Below, one piece after another: positions 30,289 through 63,934 of a stretch of 64,000 nucleotides of DNA. Where the stretch lies: contig BJHK01000001.1 in assembly GCA_014192425.1 (NCBI GenBank), positions 2,623 through 66,622 on the forward strand, in the 5' to 3' direction. Position 1 is the stretch's first letter; every line of letters starts with the position of its first letter. The notes below the pieces were generated by a model. It saw only the letters and a program-made list of their open reading frames with translations, searched no databases and was not told the DNA's origin. A program made the position numbers and the translations under genes. Source of the DNA: Planctomycetia bacterium. GTDB lineage: Bacteria > Planctomycetota > Planctomycetia > Pirellulales > UBA1268.

Positions 30289-32040
30289 TCATTCGGACCG
30301 CGGCTGCTTTCCGTCGTTGGCCCGCATGAGCATGTCCCAGACGCCGTCGGCCTCCGTGGATTGAAAGGACGCGTTCGGACCGCCCCCCATGTTGGGATCC
30401 CGGCCCACCTGCCTGCCTTCGGTGTCGGAGTCGGACTTCTCGCGTCGGGATACCGAGTTCTTGATGGGCCTTACCGAGCCGTCGCACATCGCCACCATCA
30501 GGATGTCGCCATGGTTGGCCTGGGAACGTATGGCGGAGCATTCCTGGGGCTTTGGCTGCGACTGGAACATGAACGTGTTGGCAAACTGCAGACCTTTCAC
30601 ATTTCTGGCATCGGACTCCCACTCGATGCCGAAACTGTGAGTCCAGGGCTTCCATTCGACATCTGTCGGACGGGGCATCGTGTTGTCGTCTGGAAATTCA
30701 TTCCAGTTGGTTCTGCCAGCCGAGTACGGATGCGGCTCAATGGCGAGCCGCACGGCACTCGACCTCACGTGTTGCGCTCCTGACGGAATCCACGAGGGGT
30801 CATCCGGATTCATAGCCACGTCGACGACCGTCCCCAGTCGCGGGCTGCTCCAGAATGCCAACCGCGCCATGTCGACGTAGCGATTTACCGGCGTTGGAAA
30901 GCTCGCACCGTCGGCATACACGACCGACGAGCAGTACCGCATCGCCTCGGCGAGGAGGATCGTGTTCGCCTGGCCATCCTTGATGTGGTCGAAGGAACGC
31001 GGTCTCCACGAGGTGATCTCGTAGCGGCCGGTGCCGAACGGACTCAGATGGGCTTGGGGTTCCACTCGTAGGGACGCTTCGGTGCTGGACACGGCCGCGA
31101 ACACGTGCGGGTTGGCGAGGTAGTTGGTTGTCGACCACTGCCGGCCGCCCAGCCATGTGAGCTTGGTGGATGACTCGATCACGCTGTTGTCACCCTTACA
31201 GACGGTGAGCGGCACGCGGATCCCTTCCTGGGCGGCCGGATAGTTTGGGAGGTTGAAATAGGGATAGCGGAAATTTTTGGCCAATCCCAGCCCCCTGTGC
31301 TGGCCGTAGCGAGGGTCAGTCGTGCCGGAGAAATACGGTTCGATCCATCGGGGCGGGGAGACCTGCTGCACTGTTCCGATCTGCGTCGCTTTTGTCCGGC
31401 GCACCGTGTAGGTCGCCCCGTTCATGCCAAAAGCCGTTTCCACGATGGTTTCGTACTTGTACGTTGGAATGGTCGTCGTGCCGCCCGGAGACATGGATCC
31501 GGCAATGAGCATCGTCCCGGAGGAGTTGACATTGCCCTCGACGAACGAATTACCCTCGATCACCGCCACCGAGGGGTTTGTATGCACGTTGAACGTCACG
31601 CCGTCGTCCAACGTCCTCTGCAGCGCCTCTGTCTTTGGGATCATGCCTTCGCCGCGGAGGGCTTCGCCCGGCACGTTCGGCCAATAGCGATACCCCAAGC
31701 AGACCTTCGCTTTGGGAAGTTTGAGGTACTCGGACTGCATCTCGATGTCGGGCAGCACATGGCCGAGCCAGCTGGTGAAGACGGGAGCCGCCCGTTGCGT
31801 CGACTCAAACGGATAGGCACCCCAGAACGGGGGCAGCGACCCGTTGCGGTTGTGAAAACTCGTGATTGCCTTGGCGAGTTGCCGCAGGTTGTTGCCACAG
31901 TCAGTGCGTCGGCCCGCGCTGCGGACCATTTGAACGGCCGGCAGCAGTATGGCCATCAGCCCGGCCAGGATCGCCACGACGACCAGGAGTTCGACGAGCG
32001 TGAACGCTCTCGTGACGCCACGCCGCTTACAGGTTCGCAT
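30289..32040 (-). CDS. DUF1559-family protein with prepilin-type N-terminal cleavage/methylation motif
   Basis: ATG at 32040: MRTCKRRGVTRAFTLVELLVVVAILAGLMAILLPAVQ...CGNNLRQLA, the planctomycete DUF1559 signature. 583 aa. Visibly lower GC than the neighbours. Confidence 0.85.
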   Translation of the reverse strand: MRTCKRRGVTRAFTLVELLVVVAILAGLMAILLPAVQMVRSAGRRTDCGNNLRQLAKAITSFHNRNGSLPPFWGAYPFESTQRAAPVFTSWLGHVLPDIEMQSEYLKLPKAKVCLGYRYWPNVPGEALRGEGMIPKTEALQRTLDDGVTFNVHTNPSVAVIEGNSFVEGNVNSSGTMLIAGSMSPGGTTTIPTYKYETIVETAFGMNGATYTVRRTKATQIGTVQQVSPPRWIEPYFSGTTDPRYGQHRGLGLAKNFRYPYFNLPNYPAAQEGIRVPLTVCKGDNSVIESSTKLTWLGGRQWSTTNYLANPHVFAAVSSTEASLRVEPQAHLSPFGTGRYEITSWRPRSFDHIKDGQANTILLAEAMRYCSSVVYADGASFPTPVNRYVDMARLAFWSSPRLGTVVDVAMNPDDPSWIPSGAQHVRSSAVRLAIEPHPYSAGRTNWNEFPDDNTMPRPTDVEWKPWTHSFGIEWESDARNVKGLQFANTFMFQSQPKPQECSAIRSQANHGDILMVAMCDGSVRPIKNSVSRREKSDSDTEGRQVGRDPNMGGGPNASFQSTEADGVWDMLMRANDGKQPRSE

Positions 32041-32159
32041 GCCAGCCCCTCCTCTAGGAATGAACTGATGCCGGGGACACCTAAGGATCTCATCGGTCGG
32101 CCGGGAGACCCGTCGCCACATCGAATTGTCCGTCTGGCCCGAGGGATCGTCAAGCGGGA

Positions 32160-32248
32160 AAACCAGCGGGCATGGGTGCCGCCTGGCCTCGCCCTCCGGG
32201 CTCGCCAGGCTTTGGCACCGTCCGGTGCCTGGTGCTGGGCGGGAATCG
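32160..32248. repeat. solo degenerate copy of the tRNA-Arg-associated repeat unit
   Basis: AACCAGCGGGC (32160-32171) plus 63 nt (32181-32243) identical to the array units at 40839-41716, same orientation. Homology runs up to the ISAs1 left end. Confidence 0.85.
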
Positions 32249-33372
32249 CAGGGCCGACGCAAACTTTACGCCGGGATTTGCAGGACTGTGAAGAGGTAGG
32301 CGGGATTCCAGCCGGCCATCCTTCGCCGCATGGCGATGCTTTCCTTGTCGTTGACCTGCTTCAGCAGGCTGATCGCGAAGCGTGTGAGCCAGGCGATATT
32401 GTCAGCCAAGAGGCGATTACGGACGCGACTTTCGTCCTCCCTGAAGGTAACGTCCAGACACCAATGCAACGTGTTCTCGATACCCCATTGTCCGCGGACG
32501 TTTGCTGCGAACTGCTTGATGCCTACGCGGAGTGAGCTGATGGAGTACCGCACGTCGTGGGTCGTCCTGTCCGCTTGAGTGCTCGTCCGGATGGCCACGC
32601 CGATCGTTCTCATGCCCTTCCAGTGTTGCTGGCCCGGCAGATCGGCAGGCACCGACATCTGACAGTAGGTGATCTCGTCCGTTCGCCCGTGTCCCTTGAC
32701 CGTCTCGGTGTGCGTGCGGAGCCCCGGGGAGGAAAAGTCATTTTCCACGTGCGCGTCGAAGCACTCCACGACAGCGTCGTGCAGCGCTTCCTGGTTGCCT
32801 TTCAGTGTCAGGACGTAATCTCCGCCGCCCTCGATGATCTTGGCGGCGATCGTTTTCTGACACCCGGCGGCGTCGATCGTGACGATCGATCCCTTGACGT
32901 CGATGGCAATGATCTCACGCTCCCCGTCCTTGCGGTTCGCGGCCAGCCGGCGGATCCAGTTCTCAAAGCAAGCCTGAAAGGCAGCCGGCTTCAAAGCCAT
33001 CAGCACGCCACCGATTGTGTCGTGTGCCGGCGCTCCATTGGGCAACTGCAAACGGTTCCTCAACCAGTCCGCGTTGCTTTCCGCCCACCGCCCGATCGCT
33101 TTGGGTCCTGCCGCGCCCGCGATGACCGCCATGATGCAGATAACCACCAGGTCGCTCAGAAGGTGCAGGCGGTTGATGTGCGATCGAGGATCCGGCAGGA
33201 CTGCAACCTCCTCCAAAATGCTTTTGACATCCATGTCCAGAACGACTTCGGTATTCCCTGGCACAGCTGTATCTCCGGCGACGGCTTCGAGGGAAACTCC
33301 TGACGAAGCCAATCATCGCCGCTACAGGCTTGCCGCGCCAGCCGAGATTGCCCAGAGTGCGCGCCGGCCCTG
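32249..33372 (-). mobile_element. ISAs1-family insertion sequence, internally deleted
   Basis: Candidate imperfect terminal inverted repeats: CAGGGCCGACGCAAAC (32249-32264) and the reverse complement of 33357-33372, CAGGGCCGGCGCGCAC (13/16 match). One transposase ORF. No target duplication seen. Confidence 0.7.
32266..33234 (-). pseudogene. ISAs1-family (H-repeat type) transposase with an in-frame internal deletion
   Basis: DPRS...HLLSDLVVICIMAVIAGA, GGDYVLTLKGNQ and RGQWGIENTLHWCLDVTFREDESR match ISAs1. IAIDVKGSIVTIDAAGCQ joins two motifs that are, from memory of family members, roughly 55-60 aa apart. The track ORF extends to 33312. Confidence 0.65.
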
Positions 33373-33386
33373 GGGCGTCACCGGTC

Positions 33387-34454
33387 CTACACTTCTACTG
33401 AAGTGTCGCCAGCGGGTGTGACCGGGTCCACGCCGACGGGGATACGTTTGATGCGCCGGGCCGCCTGCACGATGTGAACGACCTGATCAAGGACGACCGC
33501 CACCAGGATCACGGCGCCGACGATGATGAACGTCCAGTTCGGGTTCAGGCGCCACAACCGCGGAATTCCGCCGTCGTCGTCGTAACGGAGCTGGAACATG
33601 TTGATGCCGTTGTCGATGACCCGCATGATCGCCGAGCCGATGATGATGCCCAGCACCGTTCCCTCGCCGCCGCGCAGGGAGCAGCCGCCCAGCACCACGG
33701 CCGCGATCGCGTAAAGCTCGTACGCGACCCCGACCTGTTGCGACATCTGGCCGATGTACGCCGCGTAACAAACGCCCGCGATCCCCGCCAACCCCGACGA
33801 GATCACGTACGTCAACGTTTCGACCTTCTTGACGTTGATACCCGAATACTCGGCCGCGTCGCGGTTGCCGCCGATGGCGTACACATAGCGGCCGAATACC
33901 GTGAAATGCAGGACGTAGGTCCCGATACCCGCCACCATCAGGAACATCAGGAACGGATAAGGCACCAAGGGATCGCCGCTGATCTGGAGCAGACCGCCGT
34001 TGGCCAATCCCAGCAAAGGGGATCTGCCCATGCTCAGCGTTCCGCCCTCGACAATGGTCTGTGAAACGCCGCGGACCAGCAGCATGCCACCCAGCGTGAC
34101 GATGAATGGTTGCAACTTCAGGCGCGTGATCAGGAGGCCCTGCGTCAGCCCGACCAGCAGCGCGGCGGCAAGCGCCATACCGATCCCCAACCACAGCGGG
34201 TAAGCCAGGCCGCCGGTCGCATGCGACGACATCTTGGCGATGATGACGCCGGTTAGACCGACCACGGAGCCGACCGACAGGTCGATTCCGCCAGCGATGA
34301 TCACGAACCCGATGCCAATCGCGTAGATCCCCAGCATCGAAATCTGTCGCAACGTATTGATGGCGTTCGATGGCCCCAGAAAATCAGGGTTCGAGATGAA
34401 AAGCACCAGGCACATCACGACCAATGCCACGAACATGCCCAACTCGCGTCTCAT
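33387..34454 (-). CDS. sugar ABC transporter permease (RbsC-like)
   Basis: 355 aa. GIDLSVGSVVGL and typical ribose/monosaccharide permease pattern. ATGA overlap with the ATPase at 34451-34454. Confidence 0.9.
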   Translation of the reverse strand: MRRELGMFVALVVMCLVLFISNPDFLGPSNAINTLRQISMLGIYAIGIGFVIIAGGIDLSVGSVVGLTGVIIAKMSSHATGGLAYPLWLGIGMALAAALLVGLTQGLLITRLKLQPFIVTLGGMLLVRGVSQTIVEGGTLSMGRSPLLGLANGGLLQISGDPLVPYPFLMFLMVAGIGTYVLHFTVFGRYVYAIGGNRDAAEYSGINVKKVETLTYVISSGLAGIAGVCYAAYIGQMSQQVGVAYELYAIAAVVLGGCSLRGGEGTVLGIIIGSAIMRVIDNGINMFQLRYDDDGGIPRLWRLNPNWTFIIVGAVILVAVVLDQVVHIVQAARRIKRIPVGVDPVTPAGDTSVEV

Positions 34455-36010
34455 GCGGCTGCCCCTTCGGTTGTGCCCGTCATCAACGAGGCGATTCGTT
34501 CCTGTGTCAGCTCCGCGCGTGTCAGCACGCCCTTGATCTGTCGCTCGTGCATGACCACCACGCGATCACTCATGCCGATCACCTCCTCCATGTCCGAACT
34601 CACCATCAGAATCGTGATGCCGGCATCGGCCAGCGCCGCGACGTGGCGGTAGATCTCCGCCTTCGCGCCGACGTCGATCCCGCGCGTCGGCTCGTCCAGG
34701 ATCAGCACCTTGGGGCTCATCGCCAGCCATTTGCCCAGCACCACCTTCTGCTGATTGCCGCCGGACAGATTCACGACCCGCTGGCGGATGCTGGGTGTCT
34801 TGGTACGCAGCCGCGCGACTTCCGACTCGGCCACGCGCTGCTCGGTCGCGCGATCCAACAGGCCCCAACGGTTGTAGTTGGCGATGTTCGGCAGCGACGT
34901 GTTCTCGGCGACCGACATCGGCAGCACCAGGCCGTGGCGTTTGCGATCCTCGGGCGCCAGGTAGACGCCGCGATCGATGGCGTCGCGCGTGTTGCGCGGC
35001 AGAAAGGCGGCGCCGGCAAGGACCATCGAACCCCCGCGGGCGGGGGTCGCTCCGAAGATGCTCTGCATCAGCTCGGTGCGGCCCGCGCCAACCAGACCCG
35101 CGAAGCCCAGGATCTCGCCCCGGCGCGCCGTGAAGGTCACGCCCGCGGGAGCGCCGGGGACCAGCAGCTCCTTCACCTCCAAAACGGGTTCGATGCCGGT
35201 TTCGGCGGTGCCCCCCGGGACAGGCTCTTCCTCCCGTCTTGGCTTCTTGGGCGGGAAGTACTGATTCGACAGCTCGCGCCCCACCATCAGGGCCACGATC
35301 TTGTCGTGGGTCGCCCCCGCGCGCGCAAGATCCCCGATGTAGCGTCCGTCCCGCAGGACGGTGATGCGATCGGCAAGGTCCAGCACCTCCTGCATCCGGT
35401 GCGAGATGTAGATGATGCCGATCCCCTCGCCGCGCAGCTGCTGGATGATCTTGAACAGTTGTTCCGATTCGCCCGATGTCAGCGACGATGTCGGTTCGTC
35501 CATGATGATGATGCGCGCGTTGACGGACAGCGCCTTGGCGATTTCGACCATCTGCATCTGTCCGGCCGTCAAGGTCGAGACCGCGGTGGTGGGCGGTCGT
35601 TTCAGCCCCACGCGGGCCAGCAGCACCGCCGCCTTCTGGTTCATGTCCCGCCTGCCCAGCGGCCTCAGCATGCCAAGCCCGCCCGCCTGTTCGCTGCCAA
35701 GGAAGATGTTGGAGGCGATGTCCAGGTTCGGGGCCAGCATCAGCTCCTGATGGATCAGCGCGATGCCGCGGCGTTTGGCTTCGCGCACTCCCGTCAAGAC
35801 CACCGCCTGGCCGTCGATGACGATCTGTCCCTCGTCGGGCGGGTAGGCCCCGCCCAGGATCTTCATCAACGTGCTCTTGCCCGCGCCGTTTTCTCCCATC
35901 AGCGCCAATACCTCGCCCGCGGCCAGGGACAGCGACACCCGGGAAAGCGCGGTGACGCCTGGAAATCGCTTGGTGATTCCGCTCATTGCCAGCAGGGCAG
36001 GGGCCTCCAC
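34451..36010 (-). CDS. sugar ABC transporter ATP-binding protein, duplicated ATPase (RbsA/MglA-like)
   Basis: 519 aa with two nucleotide-binding halves (GENGAGKSTLMK / LSGGNQQKVVL etc.). Confidence 0.9.
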   Translation of the reverse strand: MEAPALLAMSGITKRFPGVTALSRVSLSLAAGEVLALMGENGAGKSTLMKILGGAYPPDEGQIVIDGQAVVLTGVREAKRRGIALIHQELMLAPNLDIASNIFLGSEQAGGLGMLRPLGRRDMNQKAAVLLARVGLKRPPTTAVSTLTAGQMQMVEIAKALSVNARIIIMDEPTSSLTSGESEQLFKIIQQLRGEGIGIIYISHRMQEVLDLADRITVLRDGRYIGDLARAGATHDKIVALMVGRELSNQYFPPKKPRREEEPVPGGTAETGIEPVLEVKELLVPGAPAGVTFTARRGEILGFAGLVGAGRTELMQSIFGATPARGGSMVLAGAAFLPRNTRDAIDRGVYLAPEDRKRHGLVLPMSVAENTSLPNIANYNRWGLLDRATEQRVAESEVARLRTKTPSIRQRVVNLSGGNQQKVVLGKWLAMSPKVLILDEPTRGIDVGAKAEIYRHVAALADAGITILMVSSDMEEVIGMSDRVVVMHERQIKGVLTRAELTQERIASLMTGTTEGAAA

Positions 36011-36021
36011 GGTGACTTGCC

Positions 36022-37014
36022 TTACGAGGACTTCTTCATCTCGGCCAACTTAGCCTTGAACGCCGCGACGTTCGTCTTGTCGATGACCTCGACACCGGTG
36101 TCGATGATCCGCGTGGGCGGCAGCGCCGCCTTGGCCGCGTCGCCCTTGGTCGCCAGTTCGTGCATCCACTTGGCGGACAGGTATCCGAACATGAACGGCT
36201 TTTGTACCACCGTGACCTGAATGGATCCGCTTTCGATTCCGTCCAGCGTGCCGTCGTCCTCGTCGAACACAGCCGCCAGCACCTTGCCTTTCTTGCCAAG
36301 GCCACTGAGCGCGGCGGCAATGGCCGTGCCGTTGTAGTTCCACAGCCCGACGACCATCGCCAGATCCGCGTTCGCGTTGACAATGTCCTCGACGTTCGAG
36401 CGGGCCTTCGCCCGATCCGTGTTGTCCTCGCGCTTGTCGATGATGTTGATGTTGTGCCCGGCGATCGCGTCCTCAATCCCCTTCAATCGTTGCGACGCAT
36501 TGTCGGCCGAGAACATGCCGACGAACACGGCGATCTTGCCGCCCTTGGGCAACAGCTTCACGATCTCGCCGCCCAGCGCCTTGCCCGCGTCGTAGTTGTT
36601 GGTGCCGATTTACAGCAGGCGCTTGGACTTGTCGGCGTCCGAGTCAAACGTGATCAGATTGGTCTTCGGCGCCAACCGGTCCAGCACCGGCGTTTGATCG
36701 GCGGGCGCTATCACGCTGACCGCCACCGCGTCGTAACCCTGGCTGACCAGGTTCTGCATGATCTGATTCTGATCCTCGGGCGTTCCGTTGGGGGGCATCT
36801 TGATGTCCACCTGGACCTTGGCCTCGGCCTCGTACTTGTGAATCCCGGCGGCGGCAATCTTCCAGAACTCGCTGGGGTTGTTGGTGACGAACGCCAGCTT
36901 GACCAGCTTGGCCCCGCCACCGCCTCCCGTGTTGCGGTTGCAGGCGGCGGCCGTCAGCATCGCCACGGCCAGAAACGCGAAGCAAATGGGAATCAACACT
37001 GATTTCGTTCTCAC
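36022..37014 (-). pseudogene. sugar ABC substrate-binding lipoprotein (RbsB-like) interrupted by one in-frame TAA
   Basis: GTG at 37014 preceded by GAGGAGG. Lipobox LTAAAC. Track ORFs 36610..37059 and 36022..36561 are in the same frame, separated only by TAA at 36610-36612 (..KSKRLL*IGTNNYDAGKALGGEIV..). Confidence 0.8.
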
Positions 37015-37117
37015 GGGTCGCCTCCTCGGGTTCGGGTGTCGCCAACGGCTGGGTGCCAACGGCCTGTAGTGTACGTCGGACCCACGATTCGATGTTGCCT
37101 GGTGTTACGCTTTCCTT

Positions 37118-37293
37118 GTGACCATCTACGACGAGTTGCGGGGTCTCATCCAGTCCCTCGACCGTGCGCGGGTGGATTACGCCCTGATCGGCGGGCTGGC
37201 CGTCGCCGTCTGGGGCGCACCACGCGCAAGGCACGCGCCGCCCGTCCACAGGACATCATGGACATCCAGAACCTGACGGATATCGACCGGTGA
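37118..37293 (+). pseudogene. remnant of a nucleotidyltransferase-like gene
   Basis: VTIYDELRGLIQSLDRARVDYALIGGLAVAVWGAPRA in one frame and ..RPQDIMDIQNLTDIDR in another. The N- and C-terminal motifs are brought together by a deletion and frameshift. Confidence 0.35.
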
Positions 37294-37502
37294 GCGTCGA
37301 AATGTCGTCCAGCGCGATCGAAGCGCGCCTGCGAGAGGCGAGCCGGCTCGCGGGATCCTTGCGGCCCGAGGAGCGGCTTGCCACGAAGATCGGCCTCACT
37401 CACGCCGATGTCGCCCGGCGCTTGAAGGAGGCATCCGATCTCTTGGACCTCTGTCGCGCGCTTGCCCGGGCGGGCGCCACGACCCGGGCCGTTGGGCCAT
37501 GA
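37290..37502 (+). CDS. small hypothetical protein
   Basis: 70-aa ORF overlapping the preceding remnant by 4 nt. No motif recognised. Confidence 0.25.
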   Translation: MSVEMSSSAIEARLREASRLAGSLRPEERLATKIGLTHADVARRLKEASDLLDLCRALARAGATTRAVGP

Positions 37503-37547
37503 ACCGCGCGGTTTCTTTGTCCGCGCGTTTCCGGTTCGCGCGTGGCA

Positions 37548-38129
37548 TCAACGGGAGGTCAATGTGTCGATGCGACCCAGTTCGTCGCTGCTGAAGTCCA
37601 GAGTCGCCAGCGCCGCCACGTTCTGTGCGACCTGTTCGGGGCGGGTCGCGCCCATCACCGCGGACACCATGCCCTTGTGGCGCAAGATGAAGGCCAACGC
37701 CATGTGCGCCAGCGTCTGTCCCCGGGCGCGGGCCAGATCGTGAAGGCCGCTCAGGATGCGCTTCTTTTCGGCCCTGGATTTCGATGTCACCCGGGCCGCT
37801 GCCCATTCGCGGGCCGGGCGGCTGTCGGCGGGCACGACGTACAACGCCTTGCCCTGTTCGACCAGGGTATCGAGCGCACCCATCGTTTCCTCCAACGGCG
37901 TGTGTGGATCAGGACGGTGCGAATAGAAGATGTCGAAATACGCGACGCCCGTGCGCTTCACCGACTGGTCGCAACTGGCGATGATGTACTTGCGCGAGCC
38001 CCATTTGCATCGGTCGCCGGCGAATGCATGGGGCATCTGGTCCTGGGCTTGTTCCGTCAAGCCGGGATGATACCGTTCACCGTCAGAAGGATGAGGGAAC
38101 ATGACCAACACCATCAGCGCGGAAGACAA
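37548..38129 (-). pseudogene. aldo-keto reductase (YghZ-like) fragment
   Basis: WGSRKYIIASCDQSVKRTGVAYFDIFYSHRPDPHTPLEETMGALDTLVEQGKALYV and RGQTLAHMALAFILRHKGMVSAVMGATRPEQV match AKR blocks. About 100 aa between them and the N-terminal part are missing. Confidence 0.6.
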
Positions 38130-38913
38130 AAACCTCGGTGCGAGCTCCGCTTCGGCGCCGCGATTCGACGTCGCCGGTCAGGTGGCGCTGGTCACCGGCG
38201 CCGCGCGCGGCCTGGGAAACGCGATCGCGATCGCGCTGGCACAGGCGGGCGCCGACATCGCGCTTGGCTTGCGCGACGTCAGCTCAGGCGGTGAACTGGT
38301 GGAGGCGATCAAGGGCACCGGTCGGCGCGTGTTGCCGCTGCAGATGGACGTCACGCGGCGCGAGCAGATCCAGTCCGCCGTCGCCCAGGCCGAGCGCCAT
38401 TTCGGACGCATCGACATCCTGGTGAACAACGCAGGCATCGGTCCGCCCAACCCGGCCGAAGACGTGACCGAGGAGGATTTCGATCTGACGCTGGCCGTGA
38501 ATCTGAAGGGGACGTTCTTTGTCAGTCAGGCGGTGGGGCGCGTGATGATCAAGAACCGCTTCGGAAGGATCATCAATCTCAGCTCGCAGGCCGGGTTCGT
38601 GGGTTTGCCGACGGAGTCCGTCTATTGCATGACCAAGGCCGCGATCGCGCACCTGACCAAATGCCTGGCCGTCGAATGGGGGCAACACGGCATCACCGTC
38701 AACGCGGTGGCGCCGACGTTCATCCGGACCCCGGGCACCGTGAAATGGCTGAAGGACGATGCCTTTCGAAACGACTTGCTGGCCAAGATCCCACTGGGAC
38801 GGGTCGGTGATCCCATCGACGTGTCGGGCGCGGTGGTGTTCTTGGCGTCGCCCGCGGCGGCGCTGATCACCGGCACCACGCTGATGATCGACGGTGGTTT
38901 CACGGCGCGTTGA
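38101..38913 (+). CDS. short-chain dehydrogenase/reductase (SDR) family oxidoreductase
   Basis: VTGAARGLGNAIA (TGxxxGxG), NNAG, and the S...YCMTKAA catalytic motif. 270 aa. Confidence 0.9.
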   Translation: MTNTISAEDKNLGASSASAPRFDVAGQVALVTGAARGLGNAIAIALAQAGADIALGLRDVSSGGELVEAIKGTGRRVLPLQMDVTRREQIQSAVAQAERHFGRIDILVNNAGIGPPNPAEDVTEEDFDLTLAVNLKGTFFVSQAVGRVMIKNRFGRIINLSSQAGFVGLPTESVYCMTKAAIAHLTKCLAVEWGQHGITVNAVAPTFIRTPGTVKWLKDDAFRNDLLAKIPLGRVGDPIDVSGAVVFLASPAAALITGTTLMIDGGFTAR

Positions 38914-39169
38914 GCATCAAACAAGCCGGGGGTTCGACCGGTGTTGCATGAAGGTGCTGAACATGAGCCGAGCGAAAGGCCTTCGAGGATCCTGGAGTTT
39001 CCGCATGGTGCTTCTGTGCGGCGCCGCGGTCGGCTGCAGTGCCGGTCAGACGACGCCTGGCGGTGACGCCGGGGGGTCACGGAGAGCACCAAGGCGTGTC
39101 CTGTGCGACACAGATTCTTGGGCACGGCACGGCACGGTCCTGCGTGTGCCCGCTGCGGGCGATTGGGCG

Positions 39170-39277
39170 CGCGTGAATGTTGATCACGGGCAGATCGTGG
39201 GGAGTCATCTGGACGCCATCGCGGTCGTCGTGGACCTGCAAGAGCTCACCCCATTCAGTAGGCGGGCCGCGCACCCG
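39170..39277 (-). mobile_element. isolated C-terminal fragment of an IS91-family transposase gene
   Basis: RGPPTEWGELLQVHDDRDGVQMTPHDLPVINIHA parallels the tail at 40500-40608 (ARGPPTDWGELVQAHDDREAVQVSPDELSVIDIHSL) but lies on the opposite strand. Confidence 0.5.
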
Positions 39278-39315
39278 GGACGGACCTGCAACCGGCCCAA
39301 CGGCATCATGCGGCC

Positions 39316-39573
39316 ATGCCATTCCGCCTCGCCGCCATCGCCGCCATGCTCGTTTCGGTTCCGCTTCACGCCGCCGAACCTGCCCCGCTCAAACCGATCC
39401 GCGTGATCCTCGTCGGCGACTCAACCGTCACCGACACGGCCGGATGGGGCACAGGCCTGGCGACGTTGGTCCGACCGGAAGCGACCGTCGTGAATCACGC
39501 CCGAGGCGGCGCGAGTACGAGCGCTACGCCGCCGCCGGGCTCCGCCCCGCGGTATCCGCCCGCCACGGGTTAG
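39316..39573 (+). pseudogene. N-terminal fragment of an SGNH/GDSL hydrolase (rhamnogalacturonan acetylesterase-like)
   Basis: Signal peptide then IRVILVGDSTVTDTAGWGTGL...VVNHARGGAS (blocks I and II). The frame then degenerates into Pro/Ala-rich sequence and stops. Confidence 0.5.
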
Positions 39574-39799
39574 AGGCCCGGTTTCTGAGTCGTGGCCACG
39601 GTGCTCGGCGAACGCCGGCGGCACGGGCCTGACCGGCCGCCGCCTCGGCATGCCCCCGATTCGTTTGCTCGGCCGACGAGCCTTGCGATCGGCTGGTGGC
39701 GAACCGCTCCGTCCCGCGGAGAGTGTACGGCCGTGTACTCCTGCCGTCCACCTGCCGGTCCGCCCATGGTTGCCGCGGTCACAGGGTTTCCCGCGCGAA

Positions 39800-40608
39800 G
39801 CCGACGCCGCCCGCGCGGTCTGCATGGCGTGCCGCACGGGATTCGTCGCGGCCTTCTCCTGCAAGGGCCGCGGCGTCTGCCCGTCCTGCAACGGCAGGCA
39901 CATGGCACAGACGGCGGCGCATCTCGCCGATCACGTCATCCTGCCGGTGCCCGTGCGGCAGTGGGTGATCTCCGTGCCGAAGCGATTGCGGGACATGCTG
40001 GCCGACCAACCCCGAGCCGTCGCCGCACGATCCGCTGGTTCAGGCTTGCGGGCCTGCTCGACGCTGCGGCCGCCGCCGACATGCTGGCCTGGGAGAACAG
40101 CGGATTTTCAGGAGACGCGAGTGTCAGGATCGCGCTCAATAGACCGCGACGTGCCGAGCTATTTTCAGAGTCTGGAACACCTGCTGCGGTATTGCGCCCG
40201 CCCGCCCTTCGCGCTCGAGCGACTCGAATCAAAAGCCCCGCTCGCACGACACGTCGCGAATCGCCTGGGCGAAACTCCTGGCCCGGGTGGGTGAGGAGTT
40301 TCCCCTCGAGTGCCCAGCGTGCGGCGGCGACATCCGGCTGATCGCGTTCAGACTGCTTTCCGAGTGCGAAACCATCCCTGGCCTTCGCACTCTTGGCAAC
40401 CTCCGGTTGCTGCGGACTTCCTGTCCGCGAGCCGGGGCCGATCCGGAAGATTCTCACACACCTCGGCGAACCACTCGAGCCACCACCAGTCTCGCCGGCC
40501 CGGGGACCGCCCACCGACTGGGGCGAGCTTGTCCAGGCTCATGACGACCGCGAAGCGGTTCAGGTGTCGCCCGACGAGCTGTCCGTGATCGACATCCACA
40601 GCCTCTAA
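39800..40608 (+). mobile_element. IS91-family transposase gene remnant (several deletions and frameshifts)
   Basis: CMACRTGFVAAFSCKGRGVCPSCNGRHM...LPVPVRQWVISVPKRLR (zinc-binding N-terminus), WENSGFSGDASVRI, LEHLLRYCARPPFALERL, PLECPACGGDIRLIAF and ILTHLGEPLEPPPVSPARGPP are spread over three frames in ~0.8 kb instead of ~1.2 kb. Confidence 0.6.
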
Positions 40609-40838
40609 GCCGTGCCGGACGCGAGGTCAAACCAAAGCCCCCAGGCGGCCGAACTCGGACAGCCTCCGCACTGACGCCAGAAAAATGCCACTCCAGAGGG
40701 GAGGGCAGCCGTTCCGGGAGCAGCTGATCAGGTGCCGGAAAACGCGGCACCAGCCTCACCAGCCGCCCATCGGCTCGGAAATGCCTGTCGACATGGTTGC
40801 GGAAGTGCCATTGACCGGACTACCCTTCTTAAAACAAG

Positions 40839-41716
40839 TGCGCCCGGGTGGACTCGAACCAGCGGGCTATCTTCACGCCCGGCCTCGCCCTCCGGGCTCG
40901 CCAGGCTTTGGCACCGTCCGGTGCCTGGTGCTGGGCGGGCATCGTGCCCACCAGTCTGACGCAGTACGCCCGGGTGGACTCGAACCAGCGGGCTATCTTC
41001 ACGCCCGGCCTCGCCCTCCGGGCTCGCCAGGCTTGGCACCGTCCGGTGCCTGGTGCTGGGCGGGCATCGTGCCCGCCAGTCTGACGCAGTACGCCCGGGT
41101 GGACTCGAACCAGCGGGCTATCTTCACGCCCGGCCTCGCCCTCCGGGCTCGCCAGGCTTTGGCACCGTCCGGTGCCTGGTGCTGGGCGGGCATCGTGCCC
41201 ACCAGTCTGACGCAGTACGCCCGGGTGGACTCGAACCAGCGGGCTATCTTCACGCCCGGCCTCGCCCTCCGGGCTCGCCAGGCTTGGCACCGTCCGGTGC
41301 CTGGTGCTGGGCGGGCATCGTGCCCGCCAGTCTGACGCAGTACGCCCGGGTGGACTCGAACCAGCGGGCTATCTTCACGCCCGGCCTCGCCCTCCGGGCT
41401 CGCCAGGCTTTGGCACCGTCCGGTGCCTGGTGCTGGGCGGGCATCGTGCCCACCAGTCTGACGCAGTACGCCCGGGTGGACTCGAACCAGCGGGCTATCT
41501 TCACGCCCGGCCTCGCCCTCCGGGCTCGCCAGGCTTGGCACCGTCCGGTGCCTGGTGCTGGGCGGGCATCGTGCCCGCCAGTCTGACGCAGTACGCCCGG
41601 CTGGACTCGAACCAGCGGGCTATCTTCACGCCTGGCCTCGCCCTCCGGGCTCGCCAGGCTTGGCACCGTCCGGTGCCTGGTGCTGGGCGGGCATCGTGCC
41701 CACCAGTCTGACGCAG
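40839..41716 (-). repeat. tandem array of seven 125/126-bp units, each = tRNA-Arg 3' 26 nt + 99-100-nt hairpin-rich module
   Basis: Unit boundaries 40839, 40965, 41090, 41216, 41341, 41467, 41592, ending at 41716. Strictly alternating A (126 bp) and B (125 bp) variants. See findings. Confidence 0.95.
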
Positions 41717-41790
41717 TACGCCCGGCTGGACTCGAACCAGCGACCCTGGGATTAGAAATCCCATGCTCTATCCGACTGAGCTACGGGCGC
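41717..41790 (-). tRNA. tRNA-Arg (anticodon TCT)
   Basis: 74 nt folded by hand: acceptor GCGCCCG/CGGGCGT (G1-U72 wobble), D arm GCTC-AGTCGGATA-GAGC, anticodon arm TGGGA-TTTCTAA-TCCCA, T arm GCTGG-TTCGAGT-CCAGC, discriminator A. No encoded CCA. Confidence 0.9.
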
Positions 41791-41956
41791 GAAGCGGGAC
41801 GCATCCCCCGGCCAAAGGCGACGGGGTGCTCCACCCTCCAAATACTACCACGCGACCACGATGGGCGGGCCCGCTGGGCCGCTTCACGGCCGCCTTGATC
41901 GCGGTCAGCGCGAGCAGCGCCGCCTTCATGAGCGGGATAAGATCGGGCATCTTCAT
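41768..41956 (-). CDS. possible small ORF with strong Shine-Dalgarno that reads into the tRNA-Arg gene
   Basis: AAGGAGGT 4 nt upstream of the ATG at 41956. Product MKMPDLIPLMKAALLALTAIKAAVK... The frame only closes 23 nt inside the tRNA gene. Confidence 0.25.
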   Translation of the reverse strand: MKMPDLIPLMKAALLALTAIKAAVKRPSGPAHRGRVVVFGGWSTPSPLAGGCVPLRARSSVG

Positions 41957-62505: not shown

Positions 62506-62566
62506 ACCGGTTCCTGATTCAGCCGACCACAGGACAGGCATGAGGAAGACCACACAGGACAGGGGC

Positions 62567-62710
62567 GGCCGGAGAGGACAGGCATCGAGGGGCCGGAGAG
62601 GACAGGCATCGAGGGGCCGGAGAGGACAGGCATCGAGGGGCCGGAGAGGACAGGCATCGAGGGGCCGGAGAGGACAGGCATCGAGGGGCCGGAGAGGACA
62701 GGCATCGAGG
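62567..62710. repeat. six perfect tandem copies of a 24-bp unit GGCCGGAGAGGACAGGCATCGAGG
   Basis: Read directly. Unit starts at 62567, 62591, 62615, 62639, 62663 and 62687. One to two degenerate copies precede it (62527-62566). Confidence 0.95.
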
Positions 62711-62998
62711 GAGGGGCAGAGGGCGCAATACCGGGGGCGTCACGACCCGGACATTTGGCAGATGCGAAACGGAAGGCCTGCCTACAAACGAGGCACGAAC
62801 ACCGCCGCCCGAAAAGGAGGCAGCGCTGCACGGAAACAAGGCGAGGCTTTGCGTGCAGTCGCAAGTCGTTATGCGACAAGGAGTTGCAGATTTCGCTTGA
62901 CGGCCGGCAAGAGTTTCCGCGGTTGGGCGTCCAGGGCCGGCAACGAGTCGGCTTCAAAGGGCGGCCATTACCAAGCCATCCCCGTCAAGGAATCGACG

Positions 62999-63466
62999 AT
63001 GCCAGCGAAGGCGACCCTCAAGCTCCCCCGATCCTCGTCCCCCGAGATCCGCTCCGTCCTCGGCGTGGCCGAGCGGCTCCATGCCATGAATCCGGAGTGG
63101 GTGGTCTTCTTCAGGGAGATCCTCGGAATCGACGGGGTCGTGCGCCGCAGCTTCCGGACCGCTGACGGCATGCGGGCCTTCGAGTGCTCGCCGGAATATG
63201 CCCGGATCAAGGAGATGCTCGACGATCTCCGGCAGCGGCCCACGGCACCGGCGGCCGGCGACCGGGAGGTGCAGCGGGTGGTCACGGTCCGCATGCCCCG
63301 GTCGCTCCATGAGTCTCTCAAGAACGAGGCCGACGATCTGCGCGTGAGCATCAACACGCTGTGCATCGCGAAGCTCATGAAGCTGCTCGATGCCCAGGAC
63401 CGGCGGAATCTCGAGGACATGCAGGCCGCCTCCGAGCCGGCGGGCCGTCCGCGCCGCGCCCGCTGA
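62999..63466 (+). CDS. hypothetical protein with C-terminal ribbon-helix-helix (Arc/CopG/HicB-like) DNA-binding motif
   Basis: ATG at 62999 with AAGGA upstream. C-terminus RVVTVRMPRSLHESLKNEADDLRVSINTLCIAKLMKLL fits beta-strand/helix/helix of RHH proteins. The track ORF from 62540 is over-extended through the repeat. Confidence 0.6.
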   Translation: MPAKATLKLPRSSSPEIRSVLGVAERLHAMNPEWVVFFREILGIDGVVRRSFRTADGMRAFECSPEYARIKEMLDDLRQRPTAPAAGDREVQRVVTVRMPRSLHESLKNEADDLRVSINTLCIAKLMKLLDAQDRRNLEDMQAASEPAGRPRRAR

Positions 63467-63486: not shown

Positions 63487-63934
63487 CGGGGGACCGGAGC
63501 GGGCCTGTAAGCCGGGTTCTGTCCCTCGCAGGGCGAGGGAGGCGACCATTTCTCTACGGCCGCGGTTGCCCGCGGCCTCCAGCAGCCGACCCGGAAGCGG
63601 GGGCGAGACGGGCCGCCTCGCGCCGGGATGGCCCCTGACGGGGTCGTCCCGAACTTCTTCCTGCTTGGCCTTGCTCCCGATGGGGTTTACCGAGCCAGAC
63701 CGGTCACCCGGTCTGCTGGTGAGCTCTTACCTCACCGTTTCACCCTTACCTGACGGGCGAACCCGCCGGGCGGTTTACTTTCTGTGGCACTGTCCCTGGC
63801 CTCGCGGCCGGTGGGCGTTACCCACCATCGAGCCCTGTGGAGCCCGGACTTTCCTCCCGCCCGCTGCCCGTCGCGCCCACTCCCGGGACGCGGCGGGCAG
63901 CGGGCCGGCGATCGCCTGGCCCACTCCGATCCAC
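63487..63934 (-). ncRNA. rnpB: RNase P RNA, bacterial type A
   Basis: The reverse complement contains GGAGGAAAGTCCGGGCTCCACAGGGC, CAGTGCCACAGAAA, GGTAAGGGTGAAACGGTGAGGTAAGAGCTCACC, GGTAAACCCCATCGGGAGCAAGGCCAAG and ACAGAACCCGGCTTA. A 15-bp P1 forms between 63918-63932 and 63494-63508. Ends are approximate. Confidence 0.93.

Follow-up and report, generated by a model that had tools for sequence, protein, structure and literature searches.

A tandem array of tRNA-Arg(UCU) 3′ ends and trailers in an uncultured freshwater planctomycete

We propose that a seven-unit tandem array lying directly behind a tRNA-Arg(UCU) gene in an uncultured freshwater planctomycete is a strain-variable local amplification of the last 26 nt of that gene together with its own 99-nt 3′ trailer, a reading to which we assign a probability of roughly 0.7. 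By anatomy, the array is a tandem repeat of the tRNA-end-plus-trailer type found at the tyrT locus of Escherichia coli, and not a new kind of element. We see no sign of mobility or of a dedicated system; the array acts like a minisatellite at a recombination-prone tRNA locus. It offers a clean natural example of the birth and growth of a minisatellite at a tRNA gene: one-, two- and seven-copy states all survive among related strains, and the join that founded the array can still be read in the sequence.

Anatomy of the array

The DNA analysed, hereafter the window, is a stretch of 64,000 nt with a G+C content of 70%. It carries a planctomycete-typical DUF1559/N-methyl protein, and homologues of the neighbouring genes are annotated to Planctomycetia MAGs; an exact-product lookup for a 160-aa neighbour gene returned no match. 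The intact tRNA-Arg(UCU) gene occupies positions 41717 to 41790 on the minus strand, where an earlier note, made from the sequence, had placed it. ARAGORN and Rfam (RF00005, 70.9 bits) agree on this tRNA-Arg(TCT), with a start at 41716/41717 and an end at 41790. The tRNA has a G1-U72 pair and the T arm GCTGG-TTCGAGT-CCAGC.

Tandem Repeats Finder reports a single array at 40837-41742 with a period of 125 and 7.2 copies (98% matches), or alternatively a period of 251 and 3.6 copies (99%), the latter being the higher-order period that the earlier note had recognised. Its unit coordinates, its alternation of 126-nt A and 125-nt B forms and the two differences between them (AAA/AA and T/C) are likewise exact by sequence. 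The seven units of 125/126 nt comprise three near-identical 251-bp dimers, each made of one A and one B (40839..41591, minus strand), and one distinct proximal unit. Read in the orientation of the tRNA, each unit begins with 99 or 100 nt of GC-rich, structured sequence and closes with 26 nt copied from the tRNA end, which take in the T arm, the 3′ strand of the acceptor and the discriminator. At 0-1 mismatch, the last 26 nt of the tRNA occur eight times in the window, against none expected in shuffles.

At the tRNA-proximal end, unit 7 (41592..41716, minus strand, 125 nt) joins a trailer copy to 26 nt that match the tRNA 3′ end exactly. This unit was rightly described as an A/B hybrid that keeps the true T-stem base, and it carries GGCCAGGC, like the single-copy relatives described below, differing there from GGCCGGGC. 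The T-stem mismatch variant CCACC is present in all three dimers, that is, in units 1-6. Dimer 1 departs by one base from dimers 2 and 3, which do not differ from each other; this points to a very recent expansion at the level of the dimer and bears out the earlier suggestion of recent amplification or homogenisation. The deviating base is C72 in the distal-most tRNA 3′ end copy (40839..40864, minus strand; CCACC, C72). This copy marks the end of the array, and the same junction is found in L028, one of the fetched loci, which are numbered with an L throughout. It reads ...CGGGCGCA, in contrast to ...CGGGCGTA in the tRNA and the other units. C72 was considered as the ancestral tRNA end and rejected, since all relatives have T72. 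Between the array and the relocated segment described below lie 17 nt (40822..40838; ACCCTTCTTAAAACAAG on the plus strand), bounded by the point at which homology with L027 stops, 40821; this stretch had no other match in the fetched loci or viral contigs. The junction between tRNA and array reads CCAGGGTCGCTGGTTCGAG, the internal junction GATAGCCCGCTGGTTCGAG and the distal junction GGGCGCACTTGTTTT.

Neither ARAGORN nor Rfam, even at E ≤ 1, made a call on the units, and a cmscan of 40700-41900 at E ≤ 1 recovered the tRNA and one chance hit only. With none of the seven units called as a tRNA, the array is not a tRNA gene array; nor is it CRISPR, given that the 125-nt units repeat whole at 98-100% identity, without unique spacers. 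Both exclusions had already been made by eye. A protein-coding repeat was also rejected, because the 251-nt period is not divisible by three.

The repeated module and its relatives

The 99-nt module had been presented as cargo-like, lying beside a core of the kind used by integrases. In L001, tRNA-Arg is followed by one module running into ...GGCGGCACCCATGCCCGCTGTTTTCCC and then by the DUF1559 gene. Two further loci reached via flanking proteins, L024 (a 41-kb contig) and L025, are also single-copy, and L003 has two modules, linked through a tRNA-end copy in just the way seen in the window. In L001, L024 and L025, the DUF1559 gene comes just after the single trailer, whose end is formed by a terminator-like hairpin and a run of T. 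Flanking genes are common to these four loci and the window, with nucleotide identities to the window of 96-98% for L001 and L003, and DUF1559 protein identities of 91% for L024 and 84% for L025. Since the module occurs once behind tRNA-Arg in relatives, the comparison identifies the 99 nt as the native 3′ trailer of tRNA-Arg in this lineage and a single copy as the common state of this trailer. The notion of cargo is not sustained: the module is single in relatives, and its boundary is a microhomology junction. The strain-to-strain comparison of copy number that the earlier note had called for gives one copy in L001, L024 and L025, two in L003, and seven plus a truncated eighth in the window, the single-copy contigs being short-read assemblies in which repeat collapse is possible in principle.

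A more distant species (L004, L005, L007 and L020, the last a GTDB representative) has a rebuilt tRNA with its own clean terminator. Its order is rebuilt tRNA, an island of about 1 kb, the former tRNA 3′ portion, now displaced (nt 32-74), a module homologue of 80% identity and the DUF1559 gene. The trailer homologue follows the old tRNA part, which argues that the trailer is a component of the tRNA locus itself, rather than of an element. Transporter homologues of 76-80% identity (L016-L018) were tried for deeper synteny and set aside, the tRNA being absent at that position.

A repeat search of the window confines the module to the tRNA-Arg locus. Among 241 million metagenome records, a module 23-mer has just two true loci, both at tRNA-Arg, and a degenerate module pattern matched one species among 185,579 genomes, again at tRNA-Arg. 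L002 was discarded as a chance 23-25-nt match within unrelated DNA. The exact 23-mer had no match in the GTDB representative genomes, so the source species is not represented there. Because the module always lies at tRNA-Arg in these scans, it is not a dispersed repeat, and the earlier dismissal of a dispersed REP-type sequence is upheld for the window and the collection scans.

These independent loci also bear on whether the array is an assembly artefact, with a true locus of one or two units inflated by the assembler. Seven copies are seen in a single assembly, and short-read contigs from relatives stop at the tRNA or within the repeats. However, the internal junction is present in L003 and the distal junction in L028, both independent contigs. 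L028 comes from another sample; its match to the distal junction is exact, and the contig stops after 57 nt of array. Linkage of the A/B differences, together with proximal and distal units that are each distinct, further gives the array an internal order unlike random inflation. We find an artefact hardly credible.

On the evidence of these sequences, the tRNA-Arg locus is a real hotspot of integration and rearrangement in relatives, and many related contigs break inside tRNA-Arg. The remnant island of about 1 kb at 8465-9521 of L004 (also in L005, L007 and L020), with a DUF4160/DUF2442 pair and its own clean terminator, is a classic anticodon-loop integration scar. In L006 (8391-8700; ERZ27247975 k141_2847857), the match to tRNA-Arg ends at nt 40, within the anticodon loop, and unrelated DNA with a GIY-YIG gene follows; there is no tRNA call, and the gene seems to have been interrupted, or replaced without rebuilding. 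The tRNA-Arg(UCU) of L001 (45-119) has the T arm GTGGG-TTCGACC-CCCAC, although the surrounding DNA is 96% identical to the window. This allele resembles the displaced old 3′ part of L004, which suggests that the tRNA 3′ half has been swapped in the lineage.

Integrases could themselves have driven the accretion of units, with the 26-nt copies serving as att cores and repeated integration and excision multiplying a miniature, integrase-less element resembling a CIME. The hotspot status of tRNA-Arg accords with this, as do the L004/L020 island with its displaced 43-nt tRNA 3′ part and the seemingly interrupted or swapped genes of L006 and L001. Att cores often span the T arm and the acceptor 3′ strand, the very parts that are repeated here. 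Like the attL/attR repeats of integrase islands and CIME remnants, moreover, the array sets direct copies of these parts downstream of an intact tRNA, and the same tRNA-Arg is targeted by islands in related strains. Nevertheless, we judge accretion by integrases very unlikely. No foreign DNA lies between the tRNA and its repeated 3′ end: the 99 nt between the cores are the native trailer, single in L001, L024 and L025, and not element DNA. Further, microhomology to the trailer end lies right at the left edge of the repeated tRNA segment, the crossover in relatives lies in the anticodon loop and not at nt 48, and neither an integrase nor other element genes appear among the ORFs scanned, from about 26.7 to 47.7 kb. 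Three viral-contig scans (module core, distal junction and distal flank) were without hits, giving no hint of a phage attP. A tRNA 3′ end that recurs downstream of its gene is not necessarily the scar of an integrase, which matters for the automatic calling of island boundaries from such repeats.

Junctions, interruption and a proposed route to the array

Local tandem amplification, our preferred reading, draws on the sequence at the joins. Across the junction, internal units read ...GGCG TGAAGATA GCCCGCTGG TTCGAGTCC..., the terminal trailer copy of the window reads ...GGCG GCACCCAT GCCCGCTGG TTTTCCC, that of relatives ...GCCCGCTG TTTTCCC, and the tRNA itself ...CCCAGGGT CGCTGG TTCGAGTCC.... 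Every internal junction has the form GCCCGCTGG|TTCGAG, in which the descending arm of the trailer hairpin is joined to the tRNA T stem at CGCTG(G)TT. The spellings are GCCCGCTGGTTCGAG in internal units, GCCCGCTGGTTTTCCC in the terminal copy (GCCCGCTGTTTTCCC in relatives) and GTCGCTGGTTCGAG in the tRNA; in internal units, the GCC to the left of CGCTGG is of trailer type and everything to the right of GGTT is of tRNA type.

The ancestral state, as single-copy relatives display it, is a tRNA, one trailer with a terminator-like hairpin and T run, and the DUF1559 gene. From the junction, we infer that the first duplication arose when the descending arm of the trailer hairpin, ...GCCCGCTG(G)TTTT, recombined, unequally or by slippage, with the 5′ T-stem strand of the tRNA, ...GTCGCTGGTTCGAG. 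At the founding join the two would have had 5-8 nt in common, CGCTG(G)TT, as expected of microhomology recombination. This would have placed a second tRNA 3′ end and trailer behind the first, the T run of the now internal copy being replaced by TTCGAG. Once two 125-nt direct repeats existed, copy number could shift by unequal crossing-over or replication slippage, and the latest steps probably amplified the 251-bp A+B dimer three times.

One part of the sequence complicates this history. Just upstream of the junction, an 8-nt block in the hairpin loop reads TGAAGATA in the internal copies of the window and TGAACACA in that of L003, whereas every terminal copy has GCACCCAT. The block is almost wholly different between internal and terminal copies, which a simple recent duplication fails to explain. 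L003 and the window have the junction and most of this odd loop block (TGAACACA versus TGAAGATA) in common, which places the duplication before their split. Copy number has gone up since that split and possibly, in others, down again. Both the CCACC/C72 variants and the 17 nt would be accounted for by a second tRNA gene carrying such an end; no such gene (reading ...TTCGAGTCCACCCGGGCGCA then CTTGTTTTAAG) was found in the fetched loci or viral contigs.

In the window, an IS-bounded rearrangement of 8.6 kb separates the array from the terminal trailer copy. From 32247 towards lower positions, L001 and the window align collinearly (96% identity), which indicates that the window keeps this copy at 32161-32247 (minus strand; repeat family D1). 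It is 5′-truncated, lacking the first ~21 nt, and ends in a terminator-like CCAGGCGG-CACCCATGC-CCGCTGG hairpin followed by TTTT (about 32159-32186). Next to it lies the gene for the DUF1559 / N-terminal-methylation protein (30289..32040, minus strand; Pfam), which is the immediate downstream neighbour of the trailer in relatives and is syntenic in L001, L003, L024 and L025. Adjoining the truncated end is an IS with a DDE transposase (DDE_Tnp_1 and DDE_Tnp_1_assoc in Pfam; 32249..33375, minus strand), its ends being approximate, read by eye from imperfect terminal inverted repeats. The same IS abuts the truncated trailer in L021, L022 and L028.

Beyond the IS, a relocated chromosomal segment (33376..39079), identified from Pfam and the comparison with L027 and L028, contains ABC sugar-transporter genes, an aldo-keto reductase fragment and a short-chain dehydrogenase. 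It is followed by debris of IS91-family transposase genes (39080..40821; Pfam E = 1.3e-09, six-frame reading and inverted repeat), in which a Zn_Tnp_IS91 domain spans 39650-40294 (+), pieces of the C terminus reach to 40605 (+) and a further C-terminal fragment lies inverted at 39080-39388 (-). L027 carries window positions 34133-40821 at 99.9-100% identity in another context, diverging at 40821, after which PSCyt/DUF1501 genes follow; L028, from a different sample, has the same interrupted arrangement as the window. Because the segment 34133-40821 is found elsewhere in L027, the interruption is an IS-associated relocation of chromosomal DNA and not an integrase island. In the proposed sequence of events, this IS-bounded 8.6-kb rearrangement would have come later, severing the array from the terminal trailer copy and its terminator.

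Several observations concern the segment itself. Its periplasmic sugar-binding protein gene (36022-37059, minus strand) is split into two ORFs in the window and L028 and is intact, at 330 aa, in L027, L029 and L030, which looks like recent pseudogenisation of the relocated copy. A 108-nt inverted repeat (39173-39280 / 40492-40599) corresponds to two opposed C-terminal fragments of the IS91 transposase, and a 421-bp stretch at 39443-39863 is absent in L027 and L029. Low G+C was rejected as a marker of foreign DNA, since the native DUF1559 region is equally low and 34133-40821 lies in another chromosomal context in L027. IS91-type rolling-circle transposition was likewise rejected as the source of the array, which is situated past the end that follows the transposase gene downstream; L027 homology stops 17 nt before the array. 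The tetranucleotide rule of IS91 (PMC3189936) does not explain the unit boundaries.

The tyrT precedent and a possible trailer RNA

The earlier note knew of no described class that fits the array; a precedent exists, however, in the tyrT-tyrV locus of E. coli K-12. There, Tandem Repeats Finder and reading of the sequence show 3.1 copies of a 178-bp unit directly behind tyrV; the final 19 nt of tRNA-Tyr, AATCCTTCCCCCACCACCA, close each unit. The K-12 locus is annotated with the sRNA RttR and tpr, a gene for a small protamine-like protein. All 5,426 complete E. coli genomes match the tyrT locus, and among 20 listed, between 0 and 4 annotated RtT features lie under the match, which suggests that RtT copy number varies between strains. 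This apparent polymorphism of the tyrT-tyrV trailer (L026 705-1263 in K-12) is seemingly little discussed.

The two loci are alike in that head-to-tail units, each a trailer plus a copy of the tRNA 3′ end, directly follow the tRNA. Both are locus-specific and not dispersed, and both vary in copy number among close strains. In contrast, the planctomycete unit is 125 nt against 178 nt, with seven copies and a dimeric higher-order period, and its 26-nt copy of the tRNA end has no encoded CCA. There is no similarity in sequence or to the Rfam model, the RtT covariance model finding no match in 40700-41900 by cmscan at E ≤ 1. The array would therefore work like the tyrT locus without belonging to the RtT family. 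An RNA product and tpr are on record for E. coli, the tyrT repeat having a documented stable RNA product (PMC3318445, citing Bosl and Kersten 1991), and not for the planctomycete array.

If the trailer were itself a functional RNA, the locus would parallel the poorly understood RtT repeat of E. coli and provide a second system for its study. The three GC-rich hairpins described earlier are indeed predicted, though folding of the unit only modestly beats shuffles (z = -2.05 on the tRNA strand, -0.88 on the other). For tRNA and trailer together, z = -2.3. None of 24 predicted pairs shows a compensatory, two-sided change among eight sequences, seven of which are nearly identical. The A/B difference that was said to preserve a wobble pair is real, but the T/C change is a one-sided G-U/G-C switch and no pair is compensatory. 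The L004 trailer core shows about 80% identity, against 84-87% for neighbouring genes, and the adjacent intergenic DNA mostly aligns poorly. Conservation on a par with genes amid poorly alignable intergenic DNA is compatible with constraint, without proving it, and the trailer may thus be functional.

Transcription is a second consideration. Internal copies keep most of the hairpin stem and lose the T run, and transcription from the tRNA promoter would thus probably read through the array. Such read-through across units is, judging from sequence, likely a by-product of the array. It could alternatively be the point of the array, with one long transcript from the tRNA promoter amplifying the dosage of a trailer RNA like E. 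coli RtT or a 3′-ETS RNA; the copies of the tRNA 3′ end would act as processing punctuation, so that each unit frees one RNA of ~99 nt and copy number sets the amount. The missing terminator T run makes read-through plausible, the core is conserved at about 80% in L004 amid intergenic DNA that aligns poorly, the tRNA and trailer fold better than shuffles, and one repeat unit at E. coli tyrT encodes the sRNA RttR (PMC3318445; annotation). Yet the predicted pairs lack compensatory changes, Rfam yields no match at E ≤ 1, the RtT family included, and units 1-6 have a C-C mismatch in the T stem while the minimum-energy fold has no tRNA-like minihelix of T arm and acceptor, so processing of the tRNA type is not favoured. 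We consider this dosage function unlikely.

Quite unlikely, too, is the fuller proposal that the trailer is a functional tRNA-linked small RNA of this lineage and the array a naturally evolved polycistronic cassette, with tRNA-end copies as punctuation and copy number as dose; if true, the tyrT/RtT arrangement would have been invented a second time, independently, in a distant phylum. The known RNAs from the 3′ external transcribed spacers of tRNAs, such as the 3′ETS-leuZ sponge of E. coli, are single-copy and defined by their partner sRNAs. The planctomycete module resembles them as a structured segment downstream of a tRNA that would possibly be co-transcribed with it, and differs from them in its array form and lack of homology.

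Elsewhere in the window, a perfect tandem repeat of six 24-nt copies (62567-62711, 100% identity) lies at the 5′ end of an ORF at 62540-63466 (+), where it would encode RGRRGQAS six times. It is situated just upstream of a full-length bacterial class A RNase P RNA gene (63492-63927, minus strand, 265 bits).
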